DNA of 64,000 nt from the NCBI GenBank assembly GCA_963784375.1, contig CAWAQY010000001.1:12486-76485 (forward strand), given 5' to 3'. This DNA comes from an uncultured Chloroflexia bacterium. Lineage in GTDB: Bacteria; Chloroflexota; Dehalococcoidia; GIF9; UBA5629. The position numbers and the translations under genes were made by a program. Below, piece by piece: positions 1 to 42,886 of the stretch. How positions within the stretch are numbered: the first letter of the stretch is position 1; each line of letters begins with the position of its first letter. Below the pieces are notes generated by a model. The model had not been told where the DNA came from, searched no databases, and was given only the letters and a program-made list of their open reading frames with translations.

Positions 1-342
1 TCAGCGGAAGGGCGACCTGTCTTCTCGTCGGGTGAACGCCGGCAGCACGAACGCGTAGAGCTCGTAGATCAGCACCGGCATCGAGATGATCAGATCGCCG
101 CGTAGGCCGACACGGTAAGCGTCGTCATGAACGGCTCGGCGACACCGAAGGTGAGCGGCTCCTGATCGTCCGGGCAGCGGTGCGTTGGCGATGTCGAGGA
201 TCAGGTGGTTCTGCCAGAAGCAGAGCGCCGACGCGACGCGAAGACGACCGCGCAGACGATGCAGCCGCGTGCGCAGCTCGTCGAGGTGCTCGACGAGGCG
301 TCAGCCGGTCTTCGGATATCGACTGGCCCGATCGGAGCGCAT
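1..342 (-). CDS. tatC: Sec-independent translocase TatC, N-terminal part only; it runs off the window start and the frame is broken several times
   Basis: Minus-strand translation gives 'LVEHLDELRTRL', 'IVCAVVFA', 'ALCFWQNHLILDIANAPLP', 'EPFMTTLTVSAYAAI' and 'MPVLIYELYAFVLPAF' in alternating frames. There is an ATG at 342. It lies immediately downstream of tatA. Confidence 0.55.
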
Positions 343-348
343 GCCGCG

Positions 349-615
349 CTACAGCTTGGGCTCGGGCGACGACCTCGCCCCGGCGGGCTCTCGCTCGCTT
401 CGGCGGCTTCGCGGTCCGACGGCGCCTGCCGACTCTGCGGCTGCGTCTTGCCGAGCTGTCGCGTCATCGTCGTCGTCGTGCTCGCCGGTCACCGCGCCCT
501 TGAACTCGCGGATCCGCGGCCGAGCGAACGCCCGAGCTCGGGCAGGCGCTTGGGGCCGAAGATGATCAGCACGATCACCAGCACGATCGCGATTTCAGGG
601 TCCTACGTTGGGCAT
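349..615 (-). CDS. tatA: Sec-independent translocase TatA/E, with two frameshifts
   Basis: 'MPNVGP' is followed after a 1-nt shift by '[28 protein letters not shown]', and after another shift by '[17 protein letters not shown]...'. The stop is at 349-351. Confidence 0.65.
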
Positions 616-659
616 GACGGCGATGGTAGGACGGGAGCGCGGGATCAGGCTCTGCCGGT

Positions 660-1246
660 TTATTGCGACTTGGCGGCGACGTTGTGGAGCCGCGAAGTTG
701 AGGTGGTAGCTGCTCCGGTCGGCTCGGCCTGGCCCTGGTACTTGCTGCCCAGCCGTCGCCGCCATACGGCCTCTCGACCGGCCGGTCGAGGCGCATGAAG
801 AGAGATCTGCCCGATCGGCATCCCGTTGTAGATCGTGATCGGCAGGTTCGCGACGTTGGAGAGTTCGAGCGTGATGTTGCCCGTGAAGCCACTGTCGACG
901 AAGCCGGCGGTCGAGTGGATCAACAGGCCCAGTCGGCCGAGGAGCTTTTGCCCTCGAGTCGCGCGACCAGGTCGTCGGGAAGGGTGACCCGCTCGAGCGT
1001 CTGGCCGAGCACGAACTCGCCCGGGTGAAGGATGAACGGCTGATCGCCCCGATCTTGACCATCTCGGTCAGGTCCTCCATCGGCTTGCGCACGTCGATGT
1101 AGGGGTGGCGCCAGTTGTGGAAGACGCGGAAAGCGTTGTCCCCGCGCACGTCCATGCTCGCCGGCTGGAAGCGCCTCGTCGTAGGGGTCGAGGACCAGTC
1201 TTCCGGCCTCTATTTCGGCCTTGATTGTGCGGTCGCTGAGCACCAT
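660..1246 (-). CDS. dcd: dCTP deaminase, frameshifted; the span is not a multiple of 3
   Basis: N-terminus '[25 protein letters not shown]', middle '[33 protein letters not shown]', C-terminus '[41 protein letters not shown]'. These pieces come from ORFs 920..1591 and 660..923. Confidence 0.85.
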
Positions 1247-1328
1247 GGGGGTCAGTCTATTGCCGGACTTAACGCGATCAACCCCGCGCTCAAGCCACGC
1301 CCGCACGTTCCGATAACAGGTCCAGGAA

Positions 1329-1652
1329 ATGGAAGTAAGGAGAGACACCAAGAAGCAGGCCGAGCGCCGCAGCGAGGGGATGCACATCTGCCCCGAGTGC
1401 CGCTCGGACCTCTGTCCAGCCCGTCGAATGGTGGGAGCGCGACGCGGACACGTGGGCGGAGTCGCCGCCCCGAGTGCGAGTGGCGCGGCGGCGGCGTCTA
1501 CGCCCAGGCGCAGATCGACCGCTACGACCGTCTCCTCGACGAGGGCGCCCGCGCCGTCGCCGTCGACCTCCGGGCCGACGCGAAAGAACATGAAGCGCGA
1601 GGCCGAGGCCGCCGCGCTCGTCCACGGCGCAGTCCTGCTGGAAGACTTCTAG
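1329..1652 (+). CDS. small zinc-ribbon protein with two CPEC motifs, frameshifted
   Basis: '[12 protein letters not shown]' (ORF 1329..1652) and '[35 protein letters not shown]' (frame of ORF 1115..1801). The terminal 'LLEDF*' stop is at 1650-1652. Confidence 0.4.
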
Positions 1653-2235
1653 GTCTTCGAAGTCTTCTGAAGCTCTTCTCGAGGCCGGTCGGGGTGGCGC
1701 TCGGCACCGGATCGGTGCCCAGGGTCTCGCGGAACACGACCTGGTGCTGGCCCTCGTTGGCCATGATCTGCGCCATCGGCTTCATCAGCGCCGGGTCCTG
1801 AAGATTCTGGATCGCGTCCGCGTAGGTGGCGATCGCGAGGTTCTCGAGCCTGACCGCGTAAGCGAGGAACGCGTCCTCGCTCGTCACCTCCGACAGCCCG
1901 GGCACGTCCTCGGGTCGCGGGGGCGCCGGGACCGCGCGGCCGAGGCCGCGCAGCATCTTGATCACGACGTCGGCGTGCTGCTGCTCCTGGCCGGCGAACA
2001 GCTTCGCGGTCGAGGTCTCGAACAGCCCCCGGCCGGCCGCCGTGTCGTAGACCAGCACCGCTGTCTGCTCGAGGTTGACGGCTCCCTCGATGATGTCGGC
2101 GTCGCCGGCCGAGGTGTCGGATTCCTGGGCGAAGGCCCGGCCGGCCTCGCCAGCCCGGGGACCGCCGCGGCCGAAGAGGGCGGCGCCGGCAAGGAGACCG
2201 TGGCGGAGCGCGTCCCGGCGGGTCGCGGCGGCCAT
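1649..2235 (-). CDS. ferritin-like domain protein with a twin-arginine signal; 3' end uncertain
   Basis: 'MAAATRRDALRHGLLAGAALFG' is Tat-like. It is followed by 'IIEGAVNLEQTAVLVYD...AGQEQQHADVV...AVRLENLAIATYADAI...MANEGQHQVVF'. The ATG at 2235 overlaps the upstream stop (TGATG). Confidence 0.55.
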
Positions 2236-2835
2236 CAGAACTTCACCGTCGGCTTCTGTCCCGTGATGATCGCCTGCGGCGACTGCTTGGCGGGGTCGCC
2301 GCCGGTCTCGACGCCGATCAGCACCGAGCTGTGCTGGGCGTCGTTGGTGGCGATCTCGGCGGCGAGGGTGCGGAGGTCGTGGTCGGGGATCTTGGGTATC
2401 GCCTCCAGGTAGGTGTAGATGCCCCACTGCTCGAGCTGGGCCAGGGAAGGCGAGCGCGGCGGGCTGGGTCTTCACCGTGTCGAGCCGAGCTGCGCACAGC
2501 GCGTCGGTCTTCGGCTTCACCGGCCGGCCGCCGATGTCGGCGACGGCTCCGCTGATCGCGGTCGCGTGGGCCTGGTCCTGCTTGCCGAACTGCCGGGCGA
2601 GCGCCAGATCCTTGCCCTCGAGCAGCGGCGCGAGCTGCTTGTAGGCCGAGACCGCCGCGAACTCGAACGCGAGCAGCGAATTGAGCACCCTGGCGTCGTT
2701 CGCCTCGTCGGTGGCGCCCGAGTCGTCCCCGCAGGCGGAGAGGGCGGCCGCCGAGCCGCCGGCCAGCGCGACCCCCGAGGCCTGGATCAGCCGCCGCCGC
2801 GAGAACGGGCGACGGAGGGAGCTGGCGGGCCTCAT
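2235..2835 (-). CDS. ferritin-like domain lipoprotein with a twin-arginine signal; one frameshift near 2445
   Basis: 'MRPASSLRRPFSRRRLIQASGVALAGGSAAALSACG' is a Tat signal plus lipobox. Then 'VLNSLLAFEFAAVSAYKQL...KQDQAHATAI'. After the shift it reads 'LAQLEQWGIYTYLEAIP...IATNDAQHSSVL...TVKF*'. Confidence 0.55.
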
Positions 2836-3795
2836 CGCGGCATCTCTATCAGCAGAGCGTCTGACCACGCCGTCGGCGACGAGGCCGAGCAGCTCGCGCT
2901 CGTCCTGCGGCAGCCGGCCTTCGAGGACCGCCTTCGCCCGCTCGACGGCGGCGCGGGCGCGGGCGCGGACCGCGTCGAGCACACCGGTTGCGGCGACGCG
3001 GTCGCAGAGCGCCTCGGCGCCGGTCTGGTCGAGGCCGTGGAGATCGACCGAGGCGATCTCGGGGTCCTCGCGGGCGGCGAGGATCAGCGCAGGTTGACGG
3101 TCCCGTCGAGCAGGTCGGTGCCCCTGCGCCTTTCCGGTCCGCTCCTCGGGGCCGGTGACGTCGAGGACGTCGTCGAGCATCTGGAACGCGAGCCCGATCC
3201 GCTCGCCGAACTCGGCCAGCGCCTCCTCGCCCGGCAGGCCCGAGGCGACCCGGCCGAAGCTTGGCACGCGCACTCGAAGAGCTGCGCGGTCTTCAGCCGG
3301 CAGCGCTCCTCGTAGCGCTGCTCGCTGACCGACATGTCGAAGGCGTCGTGGCGCTGGGCGAGCTCGCCTTGCGCGAGGGCGACGCAGCTGCCGCTGAGCA
3401 GGGCGATAAGCCTCGCATCAGGCGGCGGCTCCTCGGCACTGCCTGCGGGGCCGCCTTGGCCGTTGGTTGAAAGTTCGCGCGAACGCCCGCGAGAACAGGA
3501 GGTCGCCGACGGCGACCGCCCGTTGGCGGCCGGAGTTGGCGACGACCGTCGGCAGCCCGCGGCGGAGCGGGGCATCGTCGAGGACGTCGTCGTGGACGAG
3601 CGTCGCCATGTGGACGAGCTCGATCGCGGTCGCGGCGCGGATCGCCTCCTGCCCGGCGCCGCGTCCGGCACAGAGGAGGACGAGCAGCGGCCGCATCCGC
3701 TTGCCGCCGGCCGTCAGCGTCTCGCCGGTGTCGGCGCCGAGCTCCGGCCCCCAACCGTCGACCGTCTCGCCGAGCCGGCGCTCGACCTCGGTCAT
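2832..3795 (-). CDS. trans-polyprenyl diphosphate synthase (hepta/octaprenyl type), spread over three frames
   Basis: 'GGKRMRPLLVLL...ELVHMATLVHDDVLDDAPLRRG' is the first DDxxD motif. Then 'LIALLSGSCVALAQGELAQ', then 'IGLAFQMLDDVLDVTG' as the second DDxxD motif. Confidence 0.8.
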
Positions 3796-3865
3796 CCGCG
3801 CCGGCAGCCATGCCGCGGCGAGTCGGTCACGGCGGTGACCGGCGGCGGGACCGCGGACGGGCGGG

Positions 3866-4623
3866 TCACGACTTGGGCCCTTGGTGGCGCTGTGGATGGC
3901 GATGATGCCCCCGCGAGGACGGCGCAGCGGATATCTCGCCGAAGCCGGCGAGATCCATCTTCTCCGCGAGCGGTGGGGCGTGGGAAGGCCTCTCACCGAC
4001 TCCGGCAGGTAGCTGTAGGCGTCGTCGTCGGCCGCAACCGCGCCGAGCATCGGCACGATCTGGTCGAACCAGAGCGGGTAGAAGCTCGCCAGCGGCGGCC
4101 GGGTCGGCGTCGTTATCTCGAGGATGACGAGCCGGCCCCCCGGCTCAGCACGCGGGCGATCTCCGCAGGCCCTTGTCGAGGTCGGCGAGGTTGCGGAGGC
4201 CGAAGCCGATCGTCAGGGCGTCGAAGCTCTCGTCTTTGTAGGGAAGCTCGAGCGCGTCGGCCGACTGAACGCCACGGTCCCGGCGGCGCGGTCGGCCGCC
4301 TTGCGGCGTGCGATGCCGAGCATCTCCTCGAAGAACTTAGCCGATCAGCGCCGCCGCCGGCGGCTGAGCTTCGTCGGCCAGCTCAAGGCGAGATCGCCGG
4401 TGCCGCAGGCTACGTCGAGGGCGCTGTCTCCGGGCCCGAGCCCGGCCAGCTCGGCGGCGCGCTCGCGCCACTGGTGGTGAAGCCCCGCGGTCATCGCCGA
4501 GTTCAGCAGGTCGTAGCGGCCGGCGATGCGGTCGAACATGCCGCGCACCTGCTCGGCGAACTCGTCGGACCCGCGGTCCGGCGCCACGTGCCCGGGCTCC
4601 GCATCGGGCTCGGCCGCGGGCAA
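3866..4623 (-). CDS. ubiE: demethylmenaquinone/ubiquinone methyltransferase UbiE/MenG, frameshifted
   Basis: '[29 protein letters not shown]...[11 protein letters not shown]' at the N-terminus. 'YSYLPESVR...[12 protein letters not shown]' at the C-terminus. Confidence 0.8.
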
Positions 4624-4666
4624 CGGCGTGATCGCGCTCGGCGTCCATCGACCTCAGGCTACGCGC

Positions 4667-5367
4667 TCAGTTCAGCGAGGCGAGGAAGTCCGCGAGATCG
4701 TTGAGCTTCTGAGGGGGCAGGTTCTGGTAGCTGGGCATGATGTCCGGCCCGACCTTCAGCGAGCGGATGATCGCCTCGCGCGGCAGCCGCTCTCCGATCT
4801 TCGTCAGTCCCGCCCCGGGCCGTCGTTGCCGTTCTCGCCCAGCTTGTGGCACGCGAGGCAGCCCGATTGGGCGGCTACCTCCTTGCCGGGGGTGAGCTGG
4901 GGGCTCGTCTTCATGTCGATCTCGGTCGGCGAGCCGGCGGTCGCTCCGAGGAAGGTCAGGTAGGCCATCGCGATGATCGTCGCGACCCCGGCGATCGTCG
5001 CGATCGGGCGGCGCTCGGCGGCGCTCCGGGCCCGCGGTCGTAGAACGGCAGCAGGAGGAGCAGGACCATGGCGATCGTCGGGATGCCGACCGTTGCCAGG
5101 GGGACGTAGGGCGGGCGGCTTGATGACCCGCAGCAGCTCGAAGAGGAAGAAGAAGTACCACTCCGGGCGCGGGACGTAGGTCGTCGTTGTCGGGTCCGCC
5201 TTCGGGCCCTGCTCGGCGCCGAGCAGCAGCGACATGACGATGATCACGCCGACGACGATCAGCGCCATCGCCGAGTCCTTGAGGATCGCGTAGGGGAAGA
5301 AGGGCTTGCCCTTCTTCTTCAGCAGCTCGTACTCGGTGAGGTAGCGCTCCTTCTCGGCCGAGTTCAT
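4667..5367 (-). CDS. qcrC: menaquinol:cytochrome c reductase subunit IV / c-type cytochrome fusion (Bacillus QcrC-like), frameshifted
   Basis: 'KPFFPYAILKDSAMALIVVGVII...YVPRPEWYFFFLFELLRVIKPP' is the cytochrome b6f subunit-IV motif. 'SGCLACHKLG' is the CxxCH haem site. The C-terminus reads 'MPSYQNLPPQKLNDLADFLASLN'. Confidence 0.7.
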
Positions 5368-5479
5368 CCCTGACCCCCCGGGGCTCCGTCGCCGCCGTCG
5401 GCTTCGGCGCTTGCCGGCGCCCCGTTGCCGGCCCGCGGCCTCGGGCCCGGCGCCGTTGGCGATCGCGGTCAGCTCATGG

Positions 5480-6358
5480 TTCGGGATTGACTTCGGTTGG
5501 TTAGCACTGACTAAACGAAAAGGCATGGCCCTGGCATTTACCGATCTGGGAAGTTCACTGGGACTTCTGGTGTGGGGCTGGATAATACCATATATAGTCC
5601 AGGCTTCAAGCTGGCAAACGGGTTGGATCAGTCTGGCGGCAATGGCATTATTCGCTACACTTCTTAATTTTTTCCTGGTTAGAAATTACCCCTCGGATAA
5701 GTCAGGGATTGACCAACAGGAAGCCAATAGTCAGGTAAAGGAGCCTATATTGACAACGTACGGCAAGCTTCTCCAGAATAGAACATTCTGGCTCATCGGC
5801 TTATCTTACCTGCTTATCGGATTTTCAATTTTAATCCCCTTTACCTTTATCACTACCCATGGTGTACAGTCTCTGGCAATACCTTATCAAACGGCAAAAT
5901 GGTTCTTGATTGTAGTGGCTGCCATGCGGTATTATTGGCAAGCTCATACTAAGTCATCTCTCCGATAAGATAGGCAGGATTAAAATCATGATCATTTGCG
6001 ATCTGCTTATTGCTGCTGGAGGGCTGGGAATGATTTACAGCAGCGACTTTCTTAACATTAATCCTGTCGTCCGCTGTTTTCGGATTCGGCTACGGGGCTT
6101 TATGGCCGGTTTACGCCGCTGTCGCCGGAGATTACTTCCCTAAAGTATTTTCAGGCAGAATCATCGGCTTGTGGACGCTTTATCTGGGGTTGGGTTCAAT
6201 TTTCGCACCCCCACTGGCAGGCTGGACAATTGACAGTTCCGGGCATGTTTGTCTGGGCATTTGTCCTGACTGTAGCCAGTGCCGTGATATCACTGTTATT
6301 ACTATTACCTTTATTATCACCCTCTTCTAAAGTTCAGGAAACTGATTTGCTCAATTGA
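5480..6358 (+). CDS. MFS transporter; the 5' end is cut by the GC junction and there are two internal frameshifts
   Basis: Hydrophobic 12-TM-type sequence: 'GMALAFTDLGSSLGLLVWGWIIPYIV', 'FWLIGLSYLLIGFSILIPFTF', 'FGFGYGALWPVYAAVAGDYFP...GLWTLYLGLGSIFAPPLAGW'. The stop is at 6356-6358. Confidence 0.7.
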
Positions 6359-6383
6359 CAATCAAAAACAAAATGATTATACT
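6355..6383 (+). promoter_or_regulatory. sigma-70-type promoter for riboswitch 1 and btuF
   Basis: TTGACA (6355-6360), a 17-nt spacer, then TATACT (6378-6383). It sits just upstream of the riboswitch aptamer. Confidence 0.5.
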
Positions 6384-6399
6384 TCGGGCAATTAAATAG

Positions 6400-6596
6400 T
6401 GTAGTAAGGGTGCATTCGGGCAACCGAGAACTTAATTGGAGCGCAAGTCGGCGTAATTCCGGCACAGTCCCGCCTACTGTTAAAGTCAGGACGCCAGCCC
6501 TGTTTGTTTTGTCTACCTCCGCGGAGCAAGGGGGTGGGGTTTTGTATTTATTAAGAAATCGAAATCCCCCGCTTCTGTGGCGGGGGATTTTCTATT
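6400..6596 (+). promoter_or_regulatory. cobalamin (B12) riboswitch with a terminator expression platform
   Basis: Core reads 'CTTAATTGGAGCGCAAGTCGGCGTAATTCCGGCACAGTCCCGCCTACTGT'. The B12 box is 'AAGTCAGGACGCCAGCC'. The terminator stem is ATCCCCCGC / GCGGGGGAT (6564-6572 / 6580-6588) followed by a U-tract. Confidence 0.85.
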
Positions 6597-6613: not shown

Positions 6614-7643
6614 ATGAAAAGTAAAATTCGATTTCTCTGGATAGTCGTTACCCTGTTATTGGTAATCTATGGTTTTGCCTGCGGCAGTGGAGTTCAACCT
6701 CCACCAAAAGAAGTTGCCCCTCCTGTTCCGACTCCATCCCCCCAGGAAAAAACACCCCCTCAGGCTAAACCCGAGCCGGAGGAAGTGACTACATTCCCGG
6801 TGACGGTCACGGATGACCTGGGCAGGAAGATAACAATCAACAAACTACCCCAGCGAATCATTTCTCTGGCGCCGAGCAATACTGAAATACTCTTCGCCCT
6901 GGGGCTGGATAGCAGAATTGTAGGCGTTACCGACTATTGCGATTATCCTGAGGCAGCTAAATCAAAACCCCGTGTGGCAAGCTACGATACTCCCAATGCT
7001 GAAAAATTAATCTCCCTTCAGCCGGACCTGATAGTAGCCGAATCTATTCATGAAAAAACAGTGTTACCGGCATTGGAAAAGCTCGGTTTAACTGTTTTTG
7101 TTACCAAGGCGAAATCTGTCGATACTGTGTTGCAGGATGTTTCAAGATTGGGGCAAATAAATGGGAAGAGCACCGCAGCGGCAAAGCTGGTTGCTACATT
7201 AACTAACAGGATCAAAGCAGTGTCGGCAAAAACGGAAACCTTGCCAGCAGATAAACGTCCCAGAGTCCTCTATGTTGTGTGGCATCAACCTATCTGGACA
7301 ATGGGTTCCGATACCTACATCGACGACATGTTCAGCCTGGCTGGCGGAAACAATATTTTTTCCAGGGATTTCAAGGAGTCCAGGATAGCTTCACTGGAAT
7401 CGATTATCGCTAAAAATCCCCAGGTTATTATCGTATCGGGAATGGCAACAACCGGGGATCTGATATACAACGCTGTTAAAGGTGAGGATAGGTTGAGAAC
7501 CGTAGATGCCATGGTCAATAATCGTGTTTTCAAGATTAAGCGACTCTAACCTGATAGAGCGTCCAGGACCCAGAATAGTTGACGGACTTGATGAGCTGGC
7601 TAAACTTATACACCCCGAGATATTTGGCACATTTTCAAAGTAA
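6614..7643 (+). CDS. btuF: BtuF-like cobalamin/siderophore-family periplasmic-binding lipoprotein (ABC substrate-binding protein); one frameshift near 7540
   Basis: Lipobox 'LLVIYGFACGSG' and a Pro-rich linker. Then 'RIISLAPSNTEILFALGLDSRIVGVTDYCDYPEAA...LQPDLIVAE'. After the shift the C-terminus reads 'LIERPGPRIVDGLDELAKLIHPEIF'. It is preceded by a B12 riboswitch. Confidence 0.85.
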
Positions 7644-7650
7644 TTACTCA

Positions 7651-7680
7651 ATGACAAAGGAGCGAGGAATCATCTATATA
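7651..7680 (+). promoter_or_regulatory. possible promoter for riboswitch 2
   Basis: ATGACA (7651-7656), an 18-nt spacer, then TATATA (7675-7680). Confidence 0.3.
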
Positions 7681-7694
7681 ACCATTTTGAATAA

Positions 7695-7888
7695 AATATT
7701 AGGGCGCCCGAGGGTAACTGAGGGCTTAATTGGAACGCAAACCGGTGAAAATCCGGAACAGTACCGCCTGCTGTGAAAGTCAGAACACCTGCCCTGCATC
7801 ACATCATACCTCCGCGGAGGAAGGGGGTAGCAATTTCACAAATTGAAAAAATCCCTTGCTCCACCTGGAGAAGGGATTTTTTGTTGTT
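7695..7888 (+). promoter_or_regulatory. cobalamin (B12) riboswitch (second copy) with a terminator expression platform
   Basis: Core reads 'CTTAATTGGAACGCAAACCGGTGAAAATCCGGAACAGTACCGCCTGCTGT'. The B12 box is 'AAGTCAGAACACCTGCC'. It shares 'CCTCCGCGGAGGAAGGGGGT' with copy 1. The terminator is AATCCCTTGCTCCA / TGGAGAAGGGATT plus TTTTTT (7846-7888). Confidence 0.85.
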
Positions 7889-7904
7889 CAGAAAAGAATT
7901 AAAC

Positions 7905-10900
7905 ATGAAAAAGGAACCCATGAAATTCAGAATCTTTTGTCATTCACTCATCGTCGCACTTATTGCACTATCGATATGTTCATTTATAGCATATGATAAG
8001 CCAGCCCTTGCTGATGATTCGGGGCTTCTTAAATGGACCCGCATTGATACTCCTGGATCAGTTGCTGCTAAAAACGAGGTTGTGAGCCCTTCGGAAGTAA
8101 ACCGCATAATAGCAGGCTCAGACGGCAAGACTTTCTATTGTGTAGATATTCCCGATGCCAGCACTACAACTGGCGGCAAAGCTTTATATAAATCGTGCGA
8201 CAGCGGAAAATCATGGAGTGACGATATCGGCGAGCACATGTACCAGGAAATGTCTCCAGCAGAAAAAGCAAACTTCCGTGTCTGGACGATTGCCATAGGT
8301 CCAGACAATGTGAATTTCCTGGCTGCGGTTACCAACGGTCCTGCAAGCAATCTTCCCCGGAATGTATGGATATCGACCGATGGGGGCAACAACTGGCAAA
8401 ATACTAACCTGACCGGCACCGGCAATATCAGCGCCGTAGATGTGACTAAAAGTAATAACACCTACCTGGTGGCAATTGGTACTCGAAATGGTACGGGCGG
8501 CGGAAATGTTTATTCGTTTAAATATCCAGGATATGGCGGCTGGACAAATCAGGGCTTAACGGGAGATATAATGGCGCTCAAATTCTCCCCTAACTTCGCC
8601 CTCGATGCCGCTATTGTAGTAGTCTACTCCAATGCAGGAGGGACTTATTTAACTACCGGCATCCACGATATGGTTTCTAACCCCGGTTTTACAAATTGGA
8701 CCGCAATCTACGGCACACCGCCCGAGATCACTACATCGGGCACGGGTACTTCGGCAAAGGCCAGCCAGATTATATCTGCAGACCTGGAACTACCCAGCAA
8801 TTTCTCGGGACAGGCTCCCAGCTTCCGTCGATATTATGTCAGCATCGATGCCCCATTGAACACTGCAGGCATCTATCGCTTTGACGATAACAATAGCAAC
8901 TGGCTTATGCCTGCTACCAGCAGCAAAAGAATAGCCAGCATTGCTTATTTTGGAACCTACAGTTCCGGCAAATTACTGGCCGGTGAAGTTCTGGGAAACC
9001 CGTGCGCGGCCACGGTGATGACCTGGTTCACCGATGCACCAACGACCTGCCCCGGCACCTGCTGGTACCCTTCGGTGAAACCACCTACAGGCGCCAGCGG
9101 AAGCGATAACTGCACTGGTTCCGGCTACGGTAATGCCCAGGTTGCCTGGTCTCCGGATGGTTTAACTGCCTATGTGGGTACAGCAAGTACGGTTACCCTT
9201 ATTCCGGGAGCGAATTGGCCTTTACCTTATTTAACCGGGAAAAGCCTGGATGAATCAGCCTTTTCAATAAGCCGGAACAACGGGCAAACCTGGAACCAGC
9301 TTTCTCTCATCGATACTCGAATAAATTCGTTCACCGACATTGCGCCTTCTCCCGACTGCTCTACTGTGTTTCTGGCTTCAACCAACAACGCTACCAACTG
9401 CTCGGGATTCGATAGTGTCTGGCGCAGCCAGAGTTCACCCATAGGCTTTACCTGGGAACGTGTTTTATGTAAACCTACTACCCACGAACCATGTGGTTCA
9501 GGGCAAACCGATACGGCAATCTTAAGGTTGGCTGGGAATAGAACTGACGGCCACTACATTTTCTGGGCAGCTACTGGGACAAAATCTCTCTGGTGGTCTG
9601 CTGATCGCGGCGATTGGTGGGGAAATATCAACCCGAGATTCAATGTCCAGGATATGGCAGTCGAAGATAGCAATACTTTGTTTATATTGAGCTCAGGCGG
9701 GCAAGTTCAAAAATTTACCTTCAATTCTTCCGGGTGGTCTTCTTTAAAAACGATAAGCACGGGACTGGATTCGGGCTATAGCATTGCCACTGCTTATACC
9801 GGAATAACTCCTGATAACGACAAGGGGAACATTATCGTGGGAGGTTCAGGCAGCGGTAATTTCGACGTGGCTTATTCTACAGATGACGGTGCAACTTTTA
9901 TTGTCATCCCCAAAATACTACCTACACGGGACAATACCATGGTCGTCGCCAGTTCAGGCTATAAAACCGACGGTTATATCCTGGCTATTAACTCCGGAGG
10001 AATGTATGCCTGGGGAATCTATACCGGAATAACTGCTGATTGGGAGACATGGTGGGGTGGCCCGAGTTTCCCCAGCTCCGTTACCGGGCTTGTCCATATC
10101 AAGAAAATACGGGTTTTATTTCCCTACTCCAGCCAGTCTGTTTTCATCGGCGACTCCATATATCCGATGGTCTTCTGCCCTTGCCAACCTTGATCCGACT
10201 ATTTCATTTGGAACACAACCGACCACCAGGTTCAGGATCTGCGGCGGATTAGAATCGGGCGACAACATAACCGTTTATGCTATTGACCAGAGACCAAACG
10301 CGCCACCCGTTGGGGGAGTCTGGTGTTACATCGACTGCTTATCCTGGAACGGACCTGTGCCGGCTGATCCTGTTAGCCTTAATCCGGTTGGCTTTGACCC
10401 TGTATCCGGGAGAGCCGGGCAAATCAATGTAAAATGGAAACCTCAATGCCTTTCAAAGGGATATCAATTTCAGCTATCTAACGACATAGACTTCACCGCG
10501 CTGGTTGCTGATATCGGCAGTGTCTGGGGAGGTCCATTCTATACACCTCCTGATCTGGATGCGCCGGCCTTAATAATCCCCGCCGGCGGAGGCAGAATAG
10601 TCGATGCCTCGGGTACTGTCTGGAGAATACCTGCTTTAAACGCAAATCATACCTATTACTGGAGAATCAAGGTAAAAAGTGTGGTCACCGGCGACAACAT
10701 CGAAAGCCCCTGGTCGTGGCGGGAGAGTTTCAGGGTGACCCAGGGGCTGCCTGTCACCAATCCATATTACGGACTACAACTATTAGCACCCGATAATGCC
10801 TGCGGTTGTTTGCCGGATGCCCCACTGTGTTTCTCATGGGCGCCTTTCAAAGAAACGGCTTCTTATAGATTGGAGCTTTCGGACAAGGCAGACATGAGTG

Positions 10901-11187
10901 CCCCTTTGATGGCCGCCAGCACACCGACCACGGCCTACCAATTCCAGGATAAGCTCAAGCCCGGAATGTATTTCTGGAGAGTCAGGGCGGAAAAGCCGTT
11001 CCCCAGTGAATGGAGTGCTGTATTCAGTTTCAGTGTCCGATCCGAAACAGCAACTCGGGTACCAGAGCAGGGATTGCCTGTACCGGTCTGGGCATTAGCA
11101 ATTATGATCGCAGGAGCCGTTCTGGTAATCGTGATAGTACTGCTAATTATTAAAACTGCCCGCAGAGATAAATTCGCCGGCTATTAG
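7905..11187 (+). CDS. large cell-surface protein: signal peptide, Asp-box (BNR) beta-propeller region, two FN3-like domains and a C-terminal TM anchor; one frameshift at ~10,060-10,190
   Basis: Formed by ORFs 7773..10193 and 10057..11187. The ATG at 7905 follows the riboswitch terminator. Asp-box motifs: 'SCDSGKSW', 'STDGGNNW', 'SRNNGQTW', 'STDDGATF'. FN3-like motifs: 'HTYYWRIKV', 'GMYFWRVRA'. TM segment: 'VWALAIMIAGAVLVIVIVLLII'. It is colinear with the uninterrupted paralogue at 44088..47309. Confidence 0.8.
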
Positions 11188-11237: not shown

Positions 11238-11298
11238 TTTTCTCATAACCTATCGACAATCATTGACCAGGCAGCTATAATAGTTCTAATATAGAGTA

Positions 11299-13529
11299 AT
11301 GAAATTTATTACAAGATTTCAAAAGAAGTCTCACCCCCGGTTCCCAGCCTTCTTTTTATTGCGTTTGCTAGTGCCCATTTTGGTGATCGTCCTCAGTTTA
11401 TCTTTCGTTGTTACCCCGGTCCTGGCATTACCCACAATCATCGGGTCAGCACTGCCCACAGGGCAGGTAGGTACCGCCTATTTAGCAATACTCACTGCCG
11501 TTCCACTTTCCGGCACACCAACCTGGGCGGTTACCAGTGGCGCGCTGCCGCCCGGGATTACACTCACTCCTAGTAATGGGACTATTTCGGGTACACCTAC
11601 TGCCGCAGGAACATTCCCTTTCTTCGTCCAGGTTACTGATTCTTCCGGCACTTCTCCTCAACAGAGTTTCTTCATAACCATCTCCCCACCGCCGTTTACG
11701 ATTGCCACGACCGACATGCCCCAGAGCAAGGAAGGATCCAGCTATACGGTTACATTAAGTGTCACGGGAGGGACATCACCATTTAACTGGAACCTGGCCA
11801 GCGGCACTCTACCTTTAGGTTTAACGCTGCAGGCAACGAGCGGTGTGATCAGTGGCACTATAAGCAAGGGAACCGCCGGAACCAGCACATTTATAGTCAA
11901 TGTAACTGACAGCTCATCACCCCCAAGAAGTGCACAAAGAACATTCAGCATCTATATTGAAAAGGGCGCTTACCAGACTATAGTAACTATCTCTACAGGA
12001 TTGACAGGCGCCAGCACCAAGGTATTTGTTGACACCAAAACAACCAGTACATTAAGGGGTGGTGAATCGGTTACACTCACTTTCGACCTGGCAACCACCC
12101 ATGCGATTTCGGTTGATCCGATAGTGGCAAGCTCGACCGATAATAATGTCAGATACAAGGCCAAAGATGAAACCATAACTGTATCCGAACAACAGCCTAA
12201 CGCCGATTTTACTTACTATACCGAGTATATGATAACTGTTAAAAACGACCCTGTAATGAGTGTTACTCCACAGGGTTCCGGTTGGTTTAGAAAAGATTCT
12301 GTAATCAATGCCACCACGAAGACAGAGGTTGAGGGAAGTGCAGGGACTCTCTACCGTTTTGCCTATTGGATACTCCCCAATGGTAACCAAGTGCCCACTG
12401 AACAGCTCAACTTCACTGTCGACGGAGCATCAACTCTTACCGCAAAATATGACACTTTCTACAAATTGACTGTGGAATCATTATATGGCGAAGTAGAAGG
12501 CAGCGGCTGGTACAAAGCCAATAGCCAGGCGAGATGGTTGGTGGTAAATGACAAAGTCGGCATGCCCGGATTAGTAGGATTCTTCCAGGGTAAGTATAAA
12601 GCATCAAATCCCAGCGGCAACGAGACCATGGACAAGCCGAAGACAGTCACCGTTTTCTGGGAACCCGACTACAGCCTGCCGTATGTGCTTATACCGGTGA
12701 CAATCATTATTTTTATTTTAGCAATTGCCGGCATATACTTCTTGCTTCGCCGACAACAGCCTCTGATGCATCCTCAACCTCAGCCTCAACCGTTTGGCCC
12801 GCCCATGATGGGTTATCCTCCACCCTATATGCCGCCCCCGCCGCCACCAAGGCCAATACCTCAACAACATACTACGGTTGTTATGATTGGTGATAATAAG
12901 GGAGGCGCTCAGCCGAAGCAATTACCTTCATCAACCAAAGAACAGTTGATGGAAAAATTCGGAGAACTTCTGGAAAAATATGAAACGGAAATTAAAAGCC
13001 CGTCCGGACAACGGGAACTACCCCGGGGTGGCCCGGTCCCGATTGATAGGATGATACCGTCTCCCAGGAGCCACCACCACAGCAACCCCCGCCACAACCT
13101 GTGTTCGATGCCGAATTTACTCAGACAGAGGCAGAAGGACAGCCCTGTCCCTATTCGGCAAAAAAACTATTGAAGACAGTAACAGGAAGCTGGAAAGAAC
13201 TGGAAAGAGATACCATTGAACTGCCAGGAGCTGCCGAAGGAAAAGAATCTTCAGGGAACCAGGGACTTTTGGTAATGTGGACACGGGACATATATCATGA
13301 ATGGGAAGTGCTCAGCTGCAACCTCCCGCTTAATCATGCAGGAAAACATGCAGGAGGCAAACACATAGTTTACAGCCTTCTAAATACAGTTACCGAAAAG
13401 AAAATGTACAGTCCTAACGCAAATGTTGTTCCGCCAACCCCGCACTTTACCGATGGAATGCCTCAACAGGAACTTGTGGAAGACGAGATTATTCCTGCTG
13501 ATGAACTGCCCCCCGAAACCATAAAATAA
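11299..13529 (+). CDS. membrane protein with extracellular Ig-like (putative-Ig / cadherin-like) repeats and InlB-B-repeat-like domains, one TM and a Pro-rich cytoplasmic tail; frameshift at ~13,060-13,100
   Basis: Repeats 'LPPGITLTPSNGTISGTPTAAGTFPFFVQVTDSSG' and 'LPLGLTLQATSGVISGTISKGTAGTSTFIVNVTDSS'. Also 'GSGWF...' and 'GSGWYKANSQARW'. TM segment 'LIPVTIIIFILAIAGIYFLL'. Tail 'PPPYMPPPPPPRP'. ORF 13101..13529 continues the tail in another frame. Confidence 0.65.
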
Positions 13530-15742: not shown

Positions 15743-17861
15743 CTACATTACAGGAATAACAATCTTTATCACAGTACCTTGCCCTTCCTCACTCTGCACC
15801 TCAAACGTACCCCCAAGACTTTTGGTACGGTCCTGCATACTGATCAATCCAAAGCCCCGATGTTCTTGAGTACCTTTGTTGTTGGAGTCAGAAACAAAAC
15901 CAACCCCATTATCTCTGATTGTCAGTATTACATTTGATTTATCAAAACCCAATTCTACTTTCACTTCAGTCGCCTGAGCGTGTTTTTTAATATTAGCAAG
16001 GGATTCCTGGCCAATACGGAGAACAGCGGTTTCAATCTCAAGCGGCAATTCACGTTTATTTTCAGACACTTCAAATCGCGCTATGATATTACTGCTCTGA
16101 GCTAACCTGCCTACTTCTTGCCTGAGCGCTTCAACCAGGGATACTCGTTCCAAAGCCTGAGGACGAAGATTCCACACTGAACGGCGGGCTTCATTCAAGC
16201 TTCCTCGCGCAAGACTTCTTGCCCTATTTATATGCTGAAGCGTTTCTGAGATGTTTCCATCCATGGCCTGCTCTGCCGCTTCAAGTTGTAATATGATGCC
16301 GGTAAAACCCTGGGCTAAGAGTATCGTGTATCTCTCTTGCCATACGGTTTCGTTCTTCCATGACTGCCATGTGACTGGTCTCTTGATAGAGACGGGCATT
16401 CTCAATGGCTACCGCCAATTGATCAGCCAGCGTCTGAGCGGTAAATAAATCAGCCTCACTAAATGCATCGATTTCATTGCTCTCAATATCAAGGACGCCT
16501 AATATTTTGTCCTTAACTTTTATTGCCACCGCCAGCTCAGAATTTGTACCACTTAACTCTTCGATAAAACGAAATTTTGGCTCATTACTCACGTCATTTA
16601 CCAGGAGGGGTTCGCCAGTCTGCGCAACCCAGGCTACCAAACCTTCCTCCCCCATTTCTAATGGTACCTCCAGGGGAATTACTCCCTTGTAACCGCTGAG
16701 GCAAATTGCCTTTAAAATAAGTTTCCCGGAATTCGGCTCAAATAAAAAGATATTGACATTGTGGTAGGAAAATGTTTCCCGAAGCAGATTAGCTACAAAA
16801 GGCAACAGCTCATCAAGATTTATAATTGAGCTTATCTTACGGCTGATCTCATTTATAGTGCGCAACTGCTCAGCCCGTTGATGTTCCTGCTTTGTTCTTT
16901 CGGCAATTTTTTGTTCCAGATCAGAATACGATTCTTTTAATGTGCTGGTCATATAGTTAAATTGTGCCGCAAGGTGTTCTATCTCATCACCAGTTTTTAC
17001 CGCAATTTTATGATTTAGATCACCTTTTGCTATTATTCCGGCACCCTTGGTTAATGCTACTATAGGATCAGTAATTGTTCTGGCGATAAAAGAAGAGAGC
17101 GTAGCGATTATGGCAATCATACATACAATAATAATGATAAACGTCCACTGTGCCAGGTCCATCTGCCTTTCGATATAACGCGTTGTAGCCAGAACGGCAG
17201 TTGTAATCCGGCTTTCCGTTTCTGCTGCTGGCCGTGAGAATTCATCGATATAAGTAGTGCCTGCTACAATAAGGGAAGTCCCTTCCACCGGAACGCTAAA
17301 AAGATATTTGGACCGTATATTACCCGCGTTGTCTTCGATATCGTAGTAGCCAGCAGTCTCGCCAATCAAGCTGCTCTCTAGAATAGACCTTAAGTCAGCT
17401 ATCCCCTGTGATAGCTTATCTATTTTGGAACCAATAAGATTAATATCTTCGTGGAAATAAATAATACCTGCTCTATCATATACCATCGTGCTGCCGGTTT
17501 GTCCCACGGGTTGGACAGCTATTTTGCGCAATTGCTCATTTTCAGCGAGTTGAGCGTCTGTTAAATCCGGGTGTTGTTCAATAAAAATTTGTACTTCTTT
17601 GGCGACAACAGTCGCCTTTAATTGCACTACCCTCCTGCCTGAATCCTCCAGGGCAGCTATACTCTCAGTCACTGCACTCTGGCCGAGGCTTATGCTGTTT
17701 TGTCTGGCAGTATCTCCCACTATGCTCATGTTGCGCAGAGCAAAAATACTTATGACACCCACTGCAACAAGAGATACAGCTAGAAAAGAAATAAGAATTT
17801 TAGCTCTGATACCAGACTTTATCTGGGGGAAACTACCGACAGGGGACAGTTTTTTCATCAC
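15743..17861 (-). CDS. sensor histidine kinase with TM, extracytoplasmic sensor, HAMP, GAF, HisKA_3 and HATPase domains; one frameshift at ~16,281-16,405
   Basis: HAMP: 'DPIVALTKGAGIIAKGDLNHKIAVKTGDEIEHLAAQFNYM'. A GAF region follows. 'ERNRMAREIHDTL' continues as 'AQGFTGIILQLEAAEQ' in ORF 15743..16405. HATPase: 'IRDNGVGF...GFGLISMQDR'. Confidence 0.9.
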
Positions 17862-24992: not shown

Positions 24993-26403
24993 CTAAGAAA
25001 GATAATCTGACAAACCGCGGCTGCGGCTGCGATGACGTAATTTCGCCAGAGCTTCCTTTTCTATTTGCCGTATACGCTCTTTAGTAAGACCAAACTCTAT
25101 ACCAACATCTTCAAGGGTTTTGCTCCGACCATCATCAAGCCCAAACCTCGTTTCAATAACACGTCGCTCTCTCGGTGTAAGAGATTCCATAGCCTTTTTT
25201 AGCTGTTCCCCTAACAGAATACCCATAGCTTGCTCTTCGGGTTTGGGGCTGCTCTTATCTTCGATAAAATCACCAAGAATACTTCCCTCTTCGCCAATCG
25301 GAGTTTCCAGTGAAATCATATCTCCTGAGGTAACCTTTAAGAGCATGTCAAATTTACCGGGGGATACACCCATTTCTAAGATCAATTCTCCCTTGGTAGG
25401 TTCCCGGCCATGTTCACGCCATAGTCGTTGACGGGCCTTTGACAACGCTCTTGTCGCCTCCACCATATGTACCGGTAAACGGACAGTTCGGGATTGCTCG
25501 GCAATAGCCCGGGTTATAGCCTGCCTGATCCACCACGTTGCATAGGTACTAAATTTATATCCTTTCCTGTGATCAAACTTGTACACTGCGCGCATCAAGA
25601 CCTATATTTCCTTCCTGGATCAGATCTTGTAACGAGAGTCCCCTGGCAGCGTATTTCCGCGCCACACTGACCACAAGCCGCAAATTAGCCTGGACCAAAT
25701 GATCTGCAGCCTGGCTGGCCGTCTGCTTTACTTGCTCAAAATGGCGATTTATTCCAGCATTAGCCTTTTTTACAGTATTATTAAAAGCGGGGGTATGCGT
25801 CTTCTTTTCAAACTCAGCTGCAGAGGCAACCTTACCTGCACCATCAAGCAAATGCCACGGAATAAGACGACTGGTTAAAGATATTGAGATTATTCCTTTA
25901 ACAATCTCTTCTTCGCTCAGTTCTAATTCCCGGGCAAGTGCGCCGCTTAACACCGCATCTATTTGGTCATCGATAGCATGACGGAAATCAGGTCGCACAA
26001 TGAGTTCATCAATATTCTTACCTGCCGGTAGGTTTAAATATTGACAAAGACTGGAAAAAAGTACTTTTTTCTCGGTAAACTGTGCTAATATTAGCCATAC
26101 CACATCAGTTCCCGAAGGTTCATGATTATGGAGTGAGACCCAGTCTCCCTCAAGAGAGGAAAGATATTTATCTGACTCTATCTGACTACCCAGAGTTTTT
26201 TCCTGGGCTGCCGTAAGCAGCGGCGTTTGTTTGCATTCAGACAAATATAAACTTATCGAGTCTGCGGCTACTTCCACTTCACTTACGAGTGCCACATTGC
26301 CTTTTTGAGGCTTCTTTTCCTCTGCTTTTAAGCTCTCAGCCAAGATTTCTTCTTCATTCACAGGGAATATTTCTTCAATTTTATTAATGTTACCTAATAC
26401 CAT
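24993..26403 (-). CDS. rpoD: primary-type RNA polymerase sigma-70 factor; one frameshift at ~25,573-25,598
   Basis: Region 1.2: '[23 protein letters not shown]'. Region 2: '[31 protein letters not shown]' continuing as '[34 protein letters not shown]'. Region 4: '[28 protein letters not shown]'. Confidence 0.9.
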
Positions 26404-32179: not shown

Positions 32180-32995
32180 CTAATTTAGTGGCAATTTACT
32201 TGCGCTCGCGTACCATATAATAAAATCGCTGCCCCAAACCAAAGTTAATAGAGCAGCAAAAACAAGGAATGGGCCAAACGGGATGCTTTGCTTCCTTCCC
32301 CGGACTTTTAGCAGCAGTAAAATTGCAGATAACAGACCCCCAATGACCACAGCAAAAAAGATTGCGACTAAAATCAGAGGAAATCCGGTGGTCAAACCTA
32401 GAAAGCCCGCCAGCTTTATGTCACCACCCCCCATGCCTCCCCGTGAAATAAGTGCTACCAGGAATAAGAGAGCGAATCCAACGGCTCCCCCGATAGCAGC
32501 ATTGACCACCCATAACTTGGAAATTCTGAAAAGAGTCCCACCAGCATAATCTGGTTCAAATCCGAGTAGGGTGCCCAGTATGGCCAGAAAGATAGCTGCA
32601 ATGGTACCTGCATACACTATCTTATTGGGCAAAATGCCTTGTTCCAGATCTGTGATAAATAGAACAATAAAAAATCCGGTATAGATGAGTACAATCAGCA
32701 ATTCATAGCTTACGTTAAAATGCCAGTATAAGAACATAAATAAAAGCCCTGTGATAACCTCTACAACAAAAGAGCGCACAGGAATTTGAGTTCCGCAACA
32801 GCGGCATCGCCCCTTCAGCCACAGATAACTGAAGATCGGTATCAAATCCCTGCGGGCTATTCTTCTCTGACAGGATGGGCAATAAGATGGCGGCGATAGT
32901 AAAGACTTGCCCGCGGAGACCCGGTCAGCGACAACATTTAAGAAACTCCCCACAGCAATTCCCAGAAAGAAAAACAATAGTAAAGTTAATATCAT
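32180..32995 (-). CDS. pilD: prepilin peptidase (A24 family)
   Basis: 'CPSCQRRIARRDLIPIFSYLWLKGRCRCCGTQIP' and 'GGMGGGDIKLAGFLG'. Confidence 0.95.
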   Translation of the reverse strand: MILTLLLFFFLGIAVGSFLNVVADRVSAGKSLLSPPSYCPSCQRRIARRDLIPIFSYLWLKGRCRCCGTQIPVRSFVVEVITGLLFMFLYWHFNVSYELLIVLIYTGFFIVLFITDLEQGILPNKIVYAGTIAAIFLAILGTLLGFEPDYAGGTLFRISKLWVVNAAIGGAVGFALLFLVALISRGGMGGGDIKLAGFLGLTTGFPLILVAIFFAVVIGGLLSAILLLLKVRGRKQSIPFGPFLVFAALLTLVWGSDFIIWYASASKLPLN

Positions 32996-33193
32996 TTGAT
33001 ACTACAGGTTTTATTTTAACTGGCAGTTATTATAAATCATTAAATGCTTAATAAACAGTGGCTCACACGTATACAGGACTTTATTACCCTTGCTTAACAG
33101 TACCAACAGGTCATTTACTGTACGTGCGCCGATGCTACAATAGGTTTGCGAAATAAAAAAGCAAAATAAATAAAGGAGAAGGAGAAAAGGAAA

Positions 33194-33541
33194 ATGAAGA
33201 CACTTATCAAAACAACCCGGAAGTTGTTCAGCAAAGGTGCTGGTGAGAAAGGGTTCACCCTCATCGAGTTGCTGGTCGTGGTAGGAATCCTGGGGATTCT
33301 TGCTGGAGTGGTCACGCTCAACCTTGGTAGCTTCATCGGGACTGGGCAGGCTCAGGCTGCGTCCACTGAGCTCCATAATGTCCAGACTGCTGTAACGGCT
33401 TTCCAGGCGGCCAACAGTGGTGCCGTACCGGCAGCTTTCCCGGGAGATCTTGACCCGTACCTGGTGGGCGGTTCAGCCAAACTCCATGGTACCTATACCA
33501 TGGGTGCAGACGGGCTTGTCACTCAGACCGCATATCCCTAA
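33194..33541 (+). CDS. pilA: type IV pilin (major pilin candidate)
   Basis: Prepilin signal 'GEKG/FTLIELLVVVGILGILAGVV'. A strong RBS GGAGAAGGAG is present and a terminator follows. Confidence 0.9.
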   Translation: MKTLIKTTRKLFSKGAGEKGFTLIELLVVVGILGILAGVVTLNLGSFIGTGQAQAASTELHNVQTAVTAFQAANSGAVPAAFPGDLDPYLVGGSAKLHGTYTMGADGLVTQTAYP

Positions 33542-33596
33542 CGCCTAATGGGGAGTTGCTTCAGCGTGAGCTGAGGCACTCCAACCCTTCAAGCAA

Positions 33597-33631
33597 GCGG
33601 GCTACCGAGTTGGGTAGCCCGCTTTATTTTT
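33597..33631 (+). terminator. intrinsic terminator after pilA
   Basis: Stem GCGGGCTACC (33597-33606) pairs with GGTAGCCCGC (33613-33622), followed by TTTATTTTT. Confidence 0.75.
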
Positions 33632-33695
33632 GGTATTATTCCTTATCCAAATAGTGCGCTGCACCTCAGTCAACTGAATCATTCCTGACAGAAAC

Positions 33696-33830
33696 GTCTC
33701 CCCCTCACTTACGTCTCTCCCCAATGGGGCGAGATGAGAAAGGAGAAATCTCTCCCGCAAAGGGATGCCCTCAGGGAGAGAGAGGACAGGAAAATTAGCT
33801 CACTTTTGTCTCTCCCCTATTGGGAGAGAA
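33696..33830. repeat. intergenic hairpin-repeat array (array B), same family as array A
   Basis: 'TCTCCCCCTCACTTACGTCTCTCCCCAATGGGGCGAGA', 'TCTCTCCCGCAAAGGGA', 'CCCTCAGGGAGAGAGAGG' and 'TCTCTCCCCTATTGGGAGAGA'. The first module is the reverse complement of 31175-31199. Confidence 0.8.
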
Positions 33831-33910
33831 ACGATTTATACGGCTAACTAAACAATAATATCGGATACAAGGTGAGGAAAAATTGATATTACGCTAAAGG
33901 AAACCCTGGA

Positions 33911-34981: not shown

Positions 34982-34998
34982 TAAGATTTCTCACGCTA

Positions 34999-36394: not shown

Positions 36395-36398
36395 TCTT

Positions 36399-37358: not shown

Positions 37359-37394
37359 TATACCCCTTTACCTTCAAATAGTGACAGCGATATA

Positions 37395-38810: not shown

Positions 38811-38825
38811 CTCTTCACCTTCTCT

Positions 38826-39814: not shown

Positions 39815-39826
39815 TTCTTTACCTTT

Positions 39827-41047: not shown

Positions 41048-41059
41048 CCTTCAATAATC

Positions 41060-42667: not shown

Positions 42668-42886
42668 TTCAAATTTTCCTTGTTCTGAGTGCTATGTTTC
42701 TACGATATCCCAAAGCCGAGGCAAGTTCAATGGTAAATGGCCAATTTTAGATGACCCTTTGGTCATAAAAATGAAGTACATTAGTCCCAGGTGAATGTAG
42801 TTCTTTGAAACATGCCACCAAAACACTTACTCGATTATTCCTTGACAACTTCATCTCGTTCGTATAATATGCTTTCTAACAATACT

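Follow-up and report, generated by a model that had tools for sequence, protein, structure and literature searches.

A 64,000-nt stretch of contig CAWAQY010000001.1 from an uncultured bacterium of the Dehalococcoidia (the whole stretch is referred to below as the window) carries a btuF-like gene and, directly downstream of it, a much larger gene (the big gene) encoding a surface protein with tandem beta-propellers. Each of the two genes is preceded by an RNA element of the cobalamin riboswitch type, i.e., a distal element located before btuF and a proximal one located between btuF and the big gene, both on the + strand. An earlier note on this DNA, made from the sequence alone, had placed a B12 riboswitch in front of the big gene and had proposed that its product may capture corrinoids at the cell surface. 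The coordinates of the features of this locus are summarized in Table 1. For comparative purposes, one genome per GTDB species was scanned, which resulted in 77 loci encoding related proteins, all of them in metagenome-assembled genomes (MAGs) of Dehalococcoidia/Chloroflexota. These were divided into 32 orthologue loci, originating from 32 different genomes (48–71% identity), and 45 paralogue loci (32–46% identity).

Table 1. Features of the btuF/big gene locus (positions within the window).
Feature	Coordinates	Strand	Evidence
Promoter-like site TTGACA-17-TATACT, just 5' of the distal riboswitch	6355..6383	+	Consensus scan 11/12, pattern match only
Distal cobalamin riboswitch (P1–P5 and P13/L13 hairpin), before btuF	6405..6539	+	RF00174, R1, covariation
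Intrinsic terminator, expression platform of the distal riboswitch	6561..6596	+	Fold energy, U-run, homologous terminators
btuF-like substrate-binding lipoprotein gene, Peripla_BP_2, one extra base near 7540	6614..7642	+	Pfam, PDB relatives, frame comparison
Proximal cobalamin riboswitch; L5 7763–7769, P13/L13 7809–7827, kissing bases GCGG 7814–7817	7699..7832	+	RF01689, R1, covariation
Predicted antiterminator	7816..7862	+	Alternative fold; role inferred
Intrinsic terminator of the proximal riboswitch	7846..7882	+	Fold energy, U-run
Surface protein gene (big gene), ~1,093 aa: signal peptide, tandem beta-propellers, FN3 stalk, C-terminal transmembrane anchor	7905..11187	+	Open reading frames, homologues, AlphaFold2, Foldseek
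He_PIG Ig-domain membrane protein gene, Pro-rich (cytoplasmic) tail	11299..13173	+	Pfam PF05345, E 2e-22

A scan of the whole 64-kb window with Rfam gave no match at the gathering thresholds (GA). At E-value thresholds, just two matches were obtained, and both were of the cobalamin type: AdoCbl-II (RF01689) at 7721–7795 (+), with 32.1 bits against a GA of 36.5, corresponding to the proximal element, and Cobalamin (RF00174) at 6391–6516 (+), with 29.6 bits against a GA of 31.5, corresponding to the distal one. The E-values of both matches were about 3e-5 locally and about 1.2e-3 window-wide, and the two families belong to the same Rfam clan (CL00101). Taken on their own, these scores fall on the side that the earlier note had named as speaking against the aptamers. 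However, nhmmer searches with both window leaders recovered homologous elements in every orthologue-encoding locus (E 1e-20 to 1e-38), and 21 of the homologous elements, distributed over 16 orthologue loci, pass the GA of Rfam, the top score being 48.1 bits. A lineage-specific covariance model (R1), constructed from 49 homologues with both window copies left out, gave 131.5 bits (E 5e-32) for the proximal and 131.1 bits (E 6e-32) for the distal element, which is within the range of the homologues.

The alignment of 52 elements was then analyzed for covariation. RNAalifold indicated 12 compensated pairs. For the specified structure, comprising P1, P2/3, P4, P5, P13, and the L5–L13 pseudoknot, 93.5% of cells pair, compared with 39–47% when the 3' partners were slid by 1–3 columns; moreover, 17 pairs of this structure changed on both sides (compensatory changes), and the observed values were reached by none of 500 shuffles. 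The L5–L13 kissing loop consists of four pairs (alignment columns 96–99/149–152), with 99.5% pairing, one of which covaries: 44 sequences have CG and seven have UA. The AGTCAGAAC core is almost invariant across the aligned elements, and the motifs GGTGAAAATCC, GCCTGCTGT, and AAGTCAGAACACCTGCC quoted for the proximal element were found where they had been described, within 7690–7900. In the Rfam alignment, only 2 nt stand in place of the 71 model positions of the P6 extension, a short, class-II-like form. As the GA-passing homologues, the R1 scores of 131 bits, the covariation, and the motifs override the Rfam scores below GA, both elements are genuine short-type cobalamin riboswitches, and the well-formed B12 aptamer announced upstream of the big gene is confirmed. 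As in the class-II cobalamin riboswitches (RF01689/RF00174), the core helices and the B12-box region are present, a P6 extension is missing, and an L5–L13 kissing loop links the aptamer with the expression platform; the differences are that the window copies score just below the Rfam GA and that 49 of the 52 elements use a transcription terminator as their platform. It follows that some genuine riboswitches of the short cobalamin type escape the Rfam GA in the Dehalococcoidia lineage. No further cobalamin elements were found in the window with Rfam or R1, including the region upstream of a paralogue of the big gene located at 43849–47309.

The terminators of these 49 elements are strong, are followed by a U-tract, and lie 3' of P13; their stems vary between loci yet stay paired, i.e., they covary. 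In the window, the proximal aptamer is directly followed, as had been pointed out earlier, by a terminator hairpin (−20.6 kcal/mol, z −4.7, 0 of 200 shuffles as stable) with a U-run after it, while the distal hairpin (6561–6591) has a fold energy of −23.0 kcal/mol (z −4.0) and is also followed by a U-run. Between the aptamer and the terminator there is the P13 hairpin, likewise present in 49/52 elements, in which CCUCC pairs with GGGGG and whose loop contains GCGGAG; its fold energy in the window is −9.9 kcal/mol. An alternative helix is predicted, formed by GGAG..AAGGGG (7816–7827) and the 5' arm of the terminator hairpin (−19.2 kcal/mol, z −3.1). The terminator of the window competes with this antiterminator and with P13.

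The simplest reading of this structure is that of an off-switch. Binding of a corrinoid would allow L5 (CCGC) to kiss L13 (GCGG), by which P13 would be locked; the locked P13 would withhold the G-rich antiterminator strand, the terminator would form, and transcription would stop. In the absence of the ligand the antiterminator would form, and both btuF and the big gene would be expressed when B12 is scarce. It is also worth mentioning that the distal riboswitches of three other loci (L022:4527–4720, L023:4388–4575, and L033:4589–4780) are devoid of a terminator, with the btuF start codon located almost directly after them; judging from their sequences, these appear to represent a translational variant of the same riboswitch.

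The open reading frame (ORF) upstream of the big gene spans 6614–7549 and, after a 1-nt frame change, runs on to 7642; the position of the shift is shown by the intact BtuF C-terminus encoded in a homologous locus (L018). The deduced protein contains the Peripla_BP_2 domain (PF01497, E 3e-38), and its closest relatives in PDB are the vitamin B12-binding proteins 5ysc and 1n2z (BtuF). The scores against the NCBIfam BtuF equivalog models remained below their cut-offs (NF002894, 112.8 bits vs 234; TIGR04281, 143 vs 325), and the assignment as a putative BtuF rests on the riboswitch as well as on PF01497 and the PDB relatives. Within the region encoded by 6614–6800, a lipobox-like Cys (..YGFAC/GSG) precedes a Pro-rich linker, about 40 residues in length. 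For a substrate-binding lipoprotein this length is unusual, and it fits a protein reaching away from the membrane. BtuCD/FecCD genes were found neither among the large ORFs of the window nor within ±10 kb in two relatives. The BtuF had previously been called an orphan, which holds with regard to BtuCD as far as the data reach; functionally, it is not an orphan, as it is always paired with the propeller protein. Like the E. coli-type BtuFCD, the system includes a BtuF-like substrate-binding protein, here under a cobalamin riboswitch. In contrast to that system, btuCD is not adjacent, BtuF is tethered through a long Pro-rich linker, and the constant neighbour of btuF is the propeller protein, not a permease and an ATPase.

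The big gene is represented in the window by two ORFs, 7905..10193 (with an alternative start ATG at 7920) and 10057..11187. A tblastn comparison with a 1084-aa homologue (P0001) located a single extra base in ACC GGG CTT G/TCC at about 10087–10092, and the repaired product has about 1,093 aa, the homologues having about 1085 aa. The protein starts with a hydrophobic signal segment, contains five Asp-box-like motifs (S.[DN].G..[WFY]), and ends in a transmembrane (TM) helix with a basic tail after it. The AlphaFold2 (AF2) model of P0001, an orthologue 71% identical to the window protein, reached a predicted local distance difference test score (pLDDT) of 86.1 and a predicted template modelling score (pTM) of 0.77. 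In this model, a signal/TM helix (residues 3–25) is followed by propeller blades (~39–740), beta-sandwich domains (~743–1038), and a second TM helix (1057–1083). The C-terminal part of the window protein was modelled separately (pLDDT 86.9), and its Foldseek matches were FN3 arrays. The predicted architecture of a roughly 1,090-aa protein starting at ATG 7905, with a signal peptide, Asp-boxes, FN3-like domains, and a C-terminal anchor, is therefore borne out by the ORFs, the AF2 models, and the motifs. Foldseek searches against PDB with the P0001 model indicated GH74 xyloglucanases, sortilin/SorCS2, LRP2, the sensor domains of BT4663, and DDB1. At the sequence level, there is a weak match to Pfam Sortilin-Vps10 and another to the BNR-type glycosylhydrolase family, both below the curated cut-offs.

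Among 1.84 billion cluster representatives, just 575 belong to the family of the big protein at E ≤ 1e-3 and 114 when the limit is set to E ≤ 1e-30, and all of those with a source name are 'hypothetical proteins' of Chloroflexota/Dehalococcoidia. Comparison of orthologues with paralogues revealed 54 positions whose conservation is at least 90% among the former and which are at most 15% shared with the latter; they include Y618, TGxTPDN 625–631, R726/N727, Y745/R747, W807, W899, and WRE 931–933 (P0001 numbering). Of the 54 positions, 46 fall within residues 600–935 of P0001, which correspond to the last propeller blades and the initial domains of the stalk, and positions conserved family-wide are concentrated at residues 200–520. 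This clustering points to a putative orthologue-specific site in the membrane-proximal half of the protein, which would be within reach of the tethered BtuF.

It should be stressed that the association of the riboswitch, btuF, and the big gene is conserved. The btuF gene is located directly upstream of the big gene in all 31 orthologue loci with enough upstream sequence (L021 has too little to tell), and at least one riboswitch of the same family is present in each of the 32 orthologue loci, as well as in the window. Neither btuF nor a riboswitch was detected in any of the 45 paralogue loci, searched with nhmmer, tblastn, and R1 at E ≤ 1, and at least 14 genomes contain both a riboswitch-linked orthologue and unlinked paralogues. 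Conservation of the linkage among homologues, proposed in the earlier note as a check, is thus clear. Taking the window together with the orthologues, both riboswitch copies were found in 19 of the 33 loci, only the distal one in 11, and in three only a proximal one was detected. In seven of the 11 distal-only loci, the spacing between btuF and the big gene is 2–128 nt and there is no terminator, so the two genes form an operon. In three others (L018:4851–5959, L027:3075–3961, and L006:2623–2941) the spacer is about 0.3–1.1 kb long and contains no recognisable riboswitch.

For 46 of the 51 riboswitch elements compared, the nearest neighbour is an element of the same class (proximal or distal), which separates them into two classes. 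Judged by this sequence clustering, the duplication of the riboswitch is old and both copies were retained, so that the big gene has kept a B12 control of its own. The neighbourhood beyond btuF and the big gene is not conserved; as only these two genes are, and btuCD is absent nearby, the conserved unit consists of two extracytoplasmic proteins. The conserved riboswitch and btuF linkage makes it very likely that expression of the big gene is repressed by B12 and coupled to that of BtuF. In the searchable literature, no account of this linkage was found, and the riboswitch adds a new member to a class already known.

Cultured Dehalococcoidia are monoderm corrinoid auxotrophs, and the supply of B12 limits their ecology and their use in bioremediation. 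To our knowledge, corrinoid uptake in bacteria without an outer membrane relies only on BtuF–BtuCD or on the energy-coupling factor (ECF) system ECF-CbrT, and we know of no surface capture protein comparable to Bacteroides BtuG/BtuH in such cells. We propose that the locus described here may encode a system of this kind. It would be expressed as two B12-repressed units, riboswitch–btuF and riboswitch–big gene, or, in some relatives, as a single riboswitch–btuF–big gene operon. The big protein would be a type-I membrane protein, the FN3 stalk of which holds two fused beta-propellers above the membrane, and BtuF would be a lipoprotein on its Pro-rich tether of about 40 residues. Both would act together outside the cell: the propeller protein would capture or concentrate corrinoids at the cell surface or in an envelope layer and pass them to the tethered BtuF, which would deliver them to a BtuCD-type importer encoded elsewhere. 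The chances that the big protein has a direct role in corrinoid acquisition, either by capture or by hand-off, seem to us evenly balanced. For the more specific proposal, i.e., that the orthologue group represents the first corrinoid-capturing surface receptor outside the Bacteroidetes, loading a tethered BtuF and possibly derived from an envelope or S-layer (surface-layer) protein, we would estimate a probability of roughly 0.4.

The closest functional parallel is BtuG of Bacteroides, a surface beta-propeller encoded in B12-riboswitch loci, whose affinity for B12 is femtomolar and whose homologues were reported only in Bacteroidetes (PMC6143338). In both cases, an extracellular beta-propeller is encoded beside a component of corrinoid transport under a cobalamin riboswitch, which for the system described here holds for the orthologue loci and the window alike; both were found through conserved linkage, and the capture and hand-off role is proposed for the window protein by analogy. 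However, BtuG (Bacteroides thetaiotaomicron, 3DSM) is a single 7-bladed propeller lipoprotein sitting on the outer-membrane BtuB, with proven binding, whereas in the window protein tandem propellers are combined with an FN3 stalk and a TM anchor, its putative partner is BtuF, and it is a candidate corrinoid binder. No sequence relationship exists between them, as BtuG was not recovered when all PDB sequences were searched (E ≤ 1) with a profile built from 72 members of the family. Consequently, of the analogy with BtuG drawn in the earlier note, the shared context of a riboswitch and a transport locus stands, and a specific likeness of fold does not; since BtuG was absent from both the top structural and the profile matches, the analogy is based on regulation and gene context only. 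With this qualification, the system would be a monoderm functional counterpart of BtuG–BtuB, built from unrelated parts.

Several observations weigh against a corrinoid-capturing role. The Foldseek comparison with BtuG, which had been suggested as a check, came out negative, as the P0001 model matched generic tandem or large propellers only and BtuG (3DSM) was outside its top 50 PDB matches; among the matches of the C-terminal model, which were FN3 arrays, there was likewise no BtuG/BtuH-like fold. No characterised sequence relative was found in PDB, Pfam, or NCBIfam. The orthologue-specific residues are mostly membrane-proximal and not located on an obvious propeller face. The presence of several paralogues per genome, and their pairing with He_PIG proteins, fit a structural role in the envelope. 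Finally, btuF and the big gene are both frameshifted in the window, and the locus could be inactive if these indels are real.

The main rival to corrinoid capture is B12-dependent remodelling of the envelope. According to this explanation, the big protein is an alternative isoform of a structural, surface- or S-layer-type family, made when B12 is scarce and not itself binding corrinoids, which could, for example, open or thin the envelope so that BtuF reaches them. The multiplicity of paralogues and their recurrent pairing with He_PIG Ig-domain membrane proteins argue for it, and the signal peptide, the large beta-rich ectodomain, the stalk, and the C-terminal TM anchor resemble those of anchored surface-layer proteins. 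There is also a precedent in Dehalococcoides, since the earlier statement that BNR/Asp-box proteins were proposed as S-layer components agrees with the literature: the BNR/Asp-box protein DET1407 is a putative S-layer protein of D. mccartyi (PMC6646388, PMC5102406), and riboswitches are said to lie upstream of its gene (PMC5102406). DET1407 (Q3Z6N3) and the window protein are both large Asp-box surface proteins of the class Dehalococcoidia, in both cases with riboswitches upstream, reportedly so for DET1407, but DET1407 is constitutively abundant, is co-expressed with reductive dehalogenases, and has no known link to btuF. In a comparison made through the published peptides of DET1407 only, a word-index search gave no candidates, and the peptides were absent from the 276 retrieved family proteins. 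On the other hand, in 32 genomes the gene is strictly paired one-to-one with btuF, which suggests a specific partnership rather than general remodelling, as do the residues conserved specifically within the subfamily, and the orthologues are 48–71% identical, whereas the S-layer proteins of D. mccartyi fail to cluster even between strains (PMC6646388). We consider envelope remodelling less likely than corrinoid capture, yet the strongest of the rivals.

A second rival holds that the big protein is a GH74/sortilin-like double propeller that binds or cleaves glycans or acts as an adhesin, and that its induction under B12 starvation would serve attachment to, or feeding on, corrinoid-producing partners or particles, in which case the link with B12 is indirect. 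The structural matches have to be considered here, as the top ones are GH74 xyloglucanases (6p2l, E 1e-16) and the carbohydrate-sensing domains of BT4663; the weak Sortilin-Vps10 and BNR-type glycosylhydrolase matches point in the same direction, and the family has invariant acidic residues, e.g., the D-E pair of LDESAFS. The tandem or large Asp-box beta-propeller fold, for which they are the best Foldseek matches, is indeed common to the window protein, the GH74 xyloglucanases, and the sortilin/Vps10 propellers. However, the identity to GH74 proteins is just 12–14% with TM-scores of 0.25–0.37, the family scores are far below the curated cut-offs, and searches with the Pfam and NCBIfam models gave no family-level sequence match to GH74, the similarity being one of fold only (TMt 0.28–0.37). 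Moreover, the GH74 proteins are devoid of the FN3 stalk and the TM anchor, and neither they nor the sortilins have any known link with B12. The invariant acidic residues also occur in paralogues without B12 regulation, and the obligatory btuF neighbour would be left unexplained, so this explanation seems rather improbable.

The least probable alternative is that the locus is decaying in the genome of the window, with btuF and the big gene being pseudogenes and the riboswitches drifting below threshold. Each of the two genes does carry a 1-nt frameshift, and both window aptamers score below the Rfam GA while many homologues pass it. Nevertheless, single-base frameshifts split at least six unrelated genes of the window. 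Besides btuF (~7540) and the big gene (~10087–10092), at least four unrelated genes are affected: the paralogue (~44022–44040, ORFs 43849/44088) and the genes at 15743–17861, 25573–26403, and 57298–58987, among which are those of a histidine kinase, sigma-70, and PepX. As the frameshifts are spread over unrelated genes, the indels in btuF and the big gene are probably assembly errors and not signs of decay. The assembly looks indel-prone (of the long-read type), so ORF-based gene calls in the window are unreliable. Apart from the one indel, the two ORFs contain no further stops, remain intact, and share 71% identity with homologues of full length, and the window riboswitches lie within the range of their homologues with R1. 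Hence, a real pseudogene is judged very improbable.

Downstream of the big gene, a promoter-like site (11253–11281, consensus scan) precedes the He_PIG gene, which may thus have its own promoter. A He_PIG gene also follows the riboswitch-linked orthologue in the closest relatives (L001, L002, L004, L005, L006, and L013), and lies upstream of one group of paralogues, in about 16 of the 45 paralogue loci (L030, L032, L034, L035, L037, L039, and others), which suggests that the propeller family and He_PIG proteins form a two-protein surface cassette. MFD04408.bin.2.19, the closest complete relative, has an additional paralogue (L078:15813–18914, 1033 aa) after the He_PIG gene, resulting in the order btuF, orthologue, He_PIG, paralogue; the window is without this fourth gene. 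The window paralogue at 43849–47309 (+) is 35% identical to the big protein over the propellers and 33% over the C-terminal part, and is accompanied by neither a riboswitch nor btuF. It adjoins a gene of a LuxR-type response regulator (42812–43570) and lies beside a type IV pilus/type II secretion system (T2SS)-like cluster (32180–42667), encoding a prepilin peptidase, two T2SSE ATPases, and T2SSF. At the other end, the region 1–6000 contains many overlapping ORFs on both strands with fragmentary domains (e.g., a ferritin-like domain fused to a fragment of a polyprenyl synthase), which is probably a result of further frameshift damage. A fragment of a major facilitator superfamily (MFS) transporter is located at 5411–5968, and in L078 and L079, too, the locus has an MFS transporter in front of it.

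The results presented here add a gene class to the cobalamin riboswitch regulon. An uncharacterised protein family, locked to btuF and B12 riboswitches in all orthologue loci examined, offers a concrete and cheaply testable hypothesis, and the regulated gene class together with the BtuF pairing would extend the theme of a surface B12-capture accessory to a different phylum, a different envelope type, and an unrelated architecture. If corrinoid capture is the true role of the big protein, the locus would represent a new two-component extracytoplasmic module for B12 scavenging in Dehalococcoidia.

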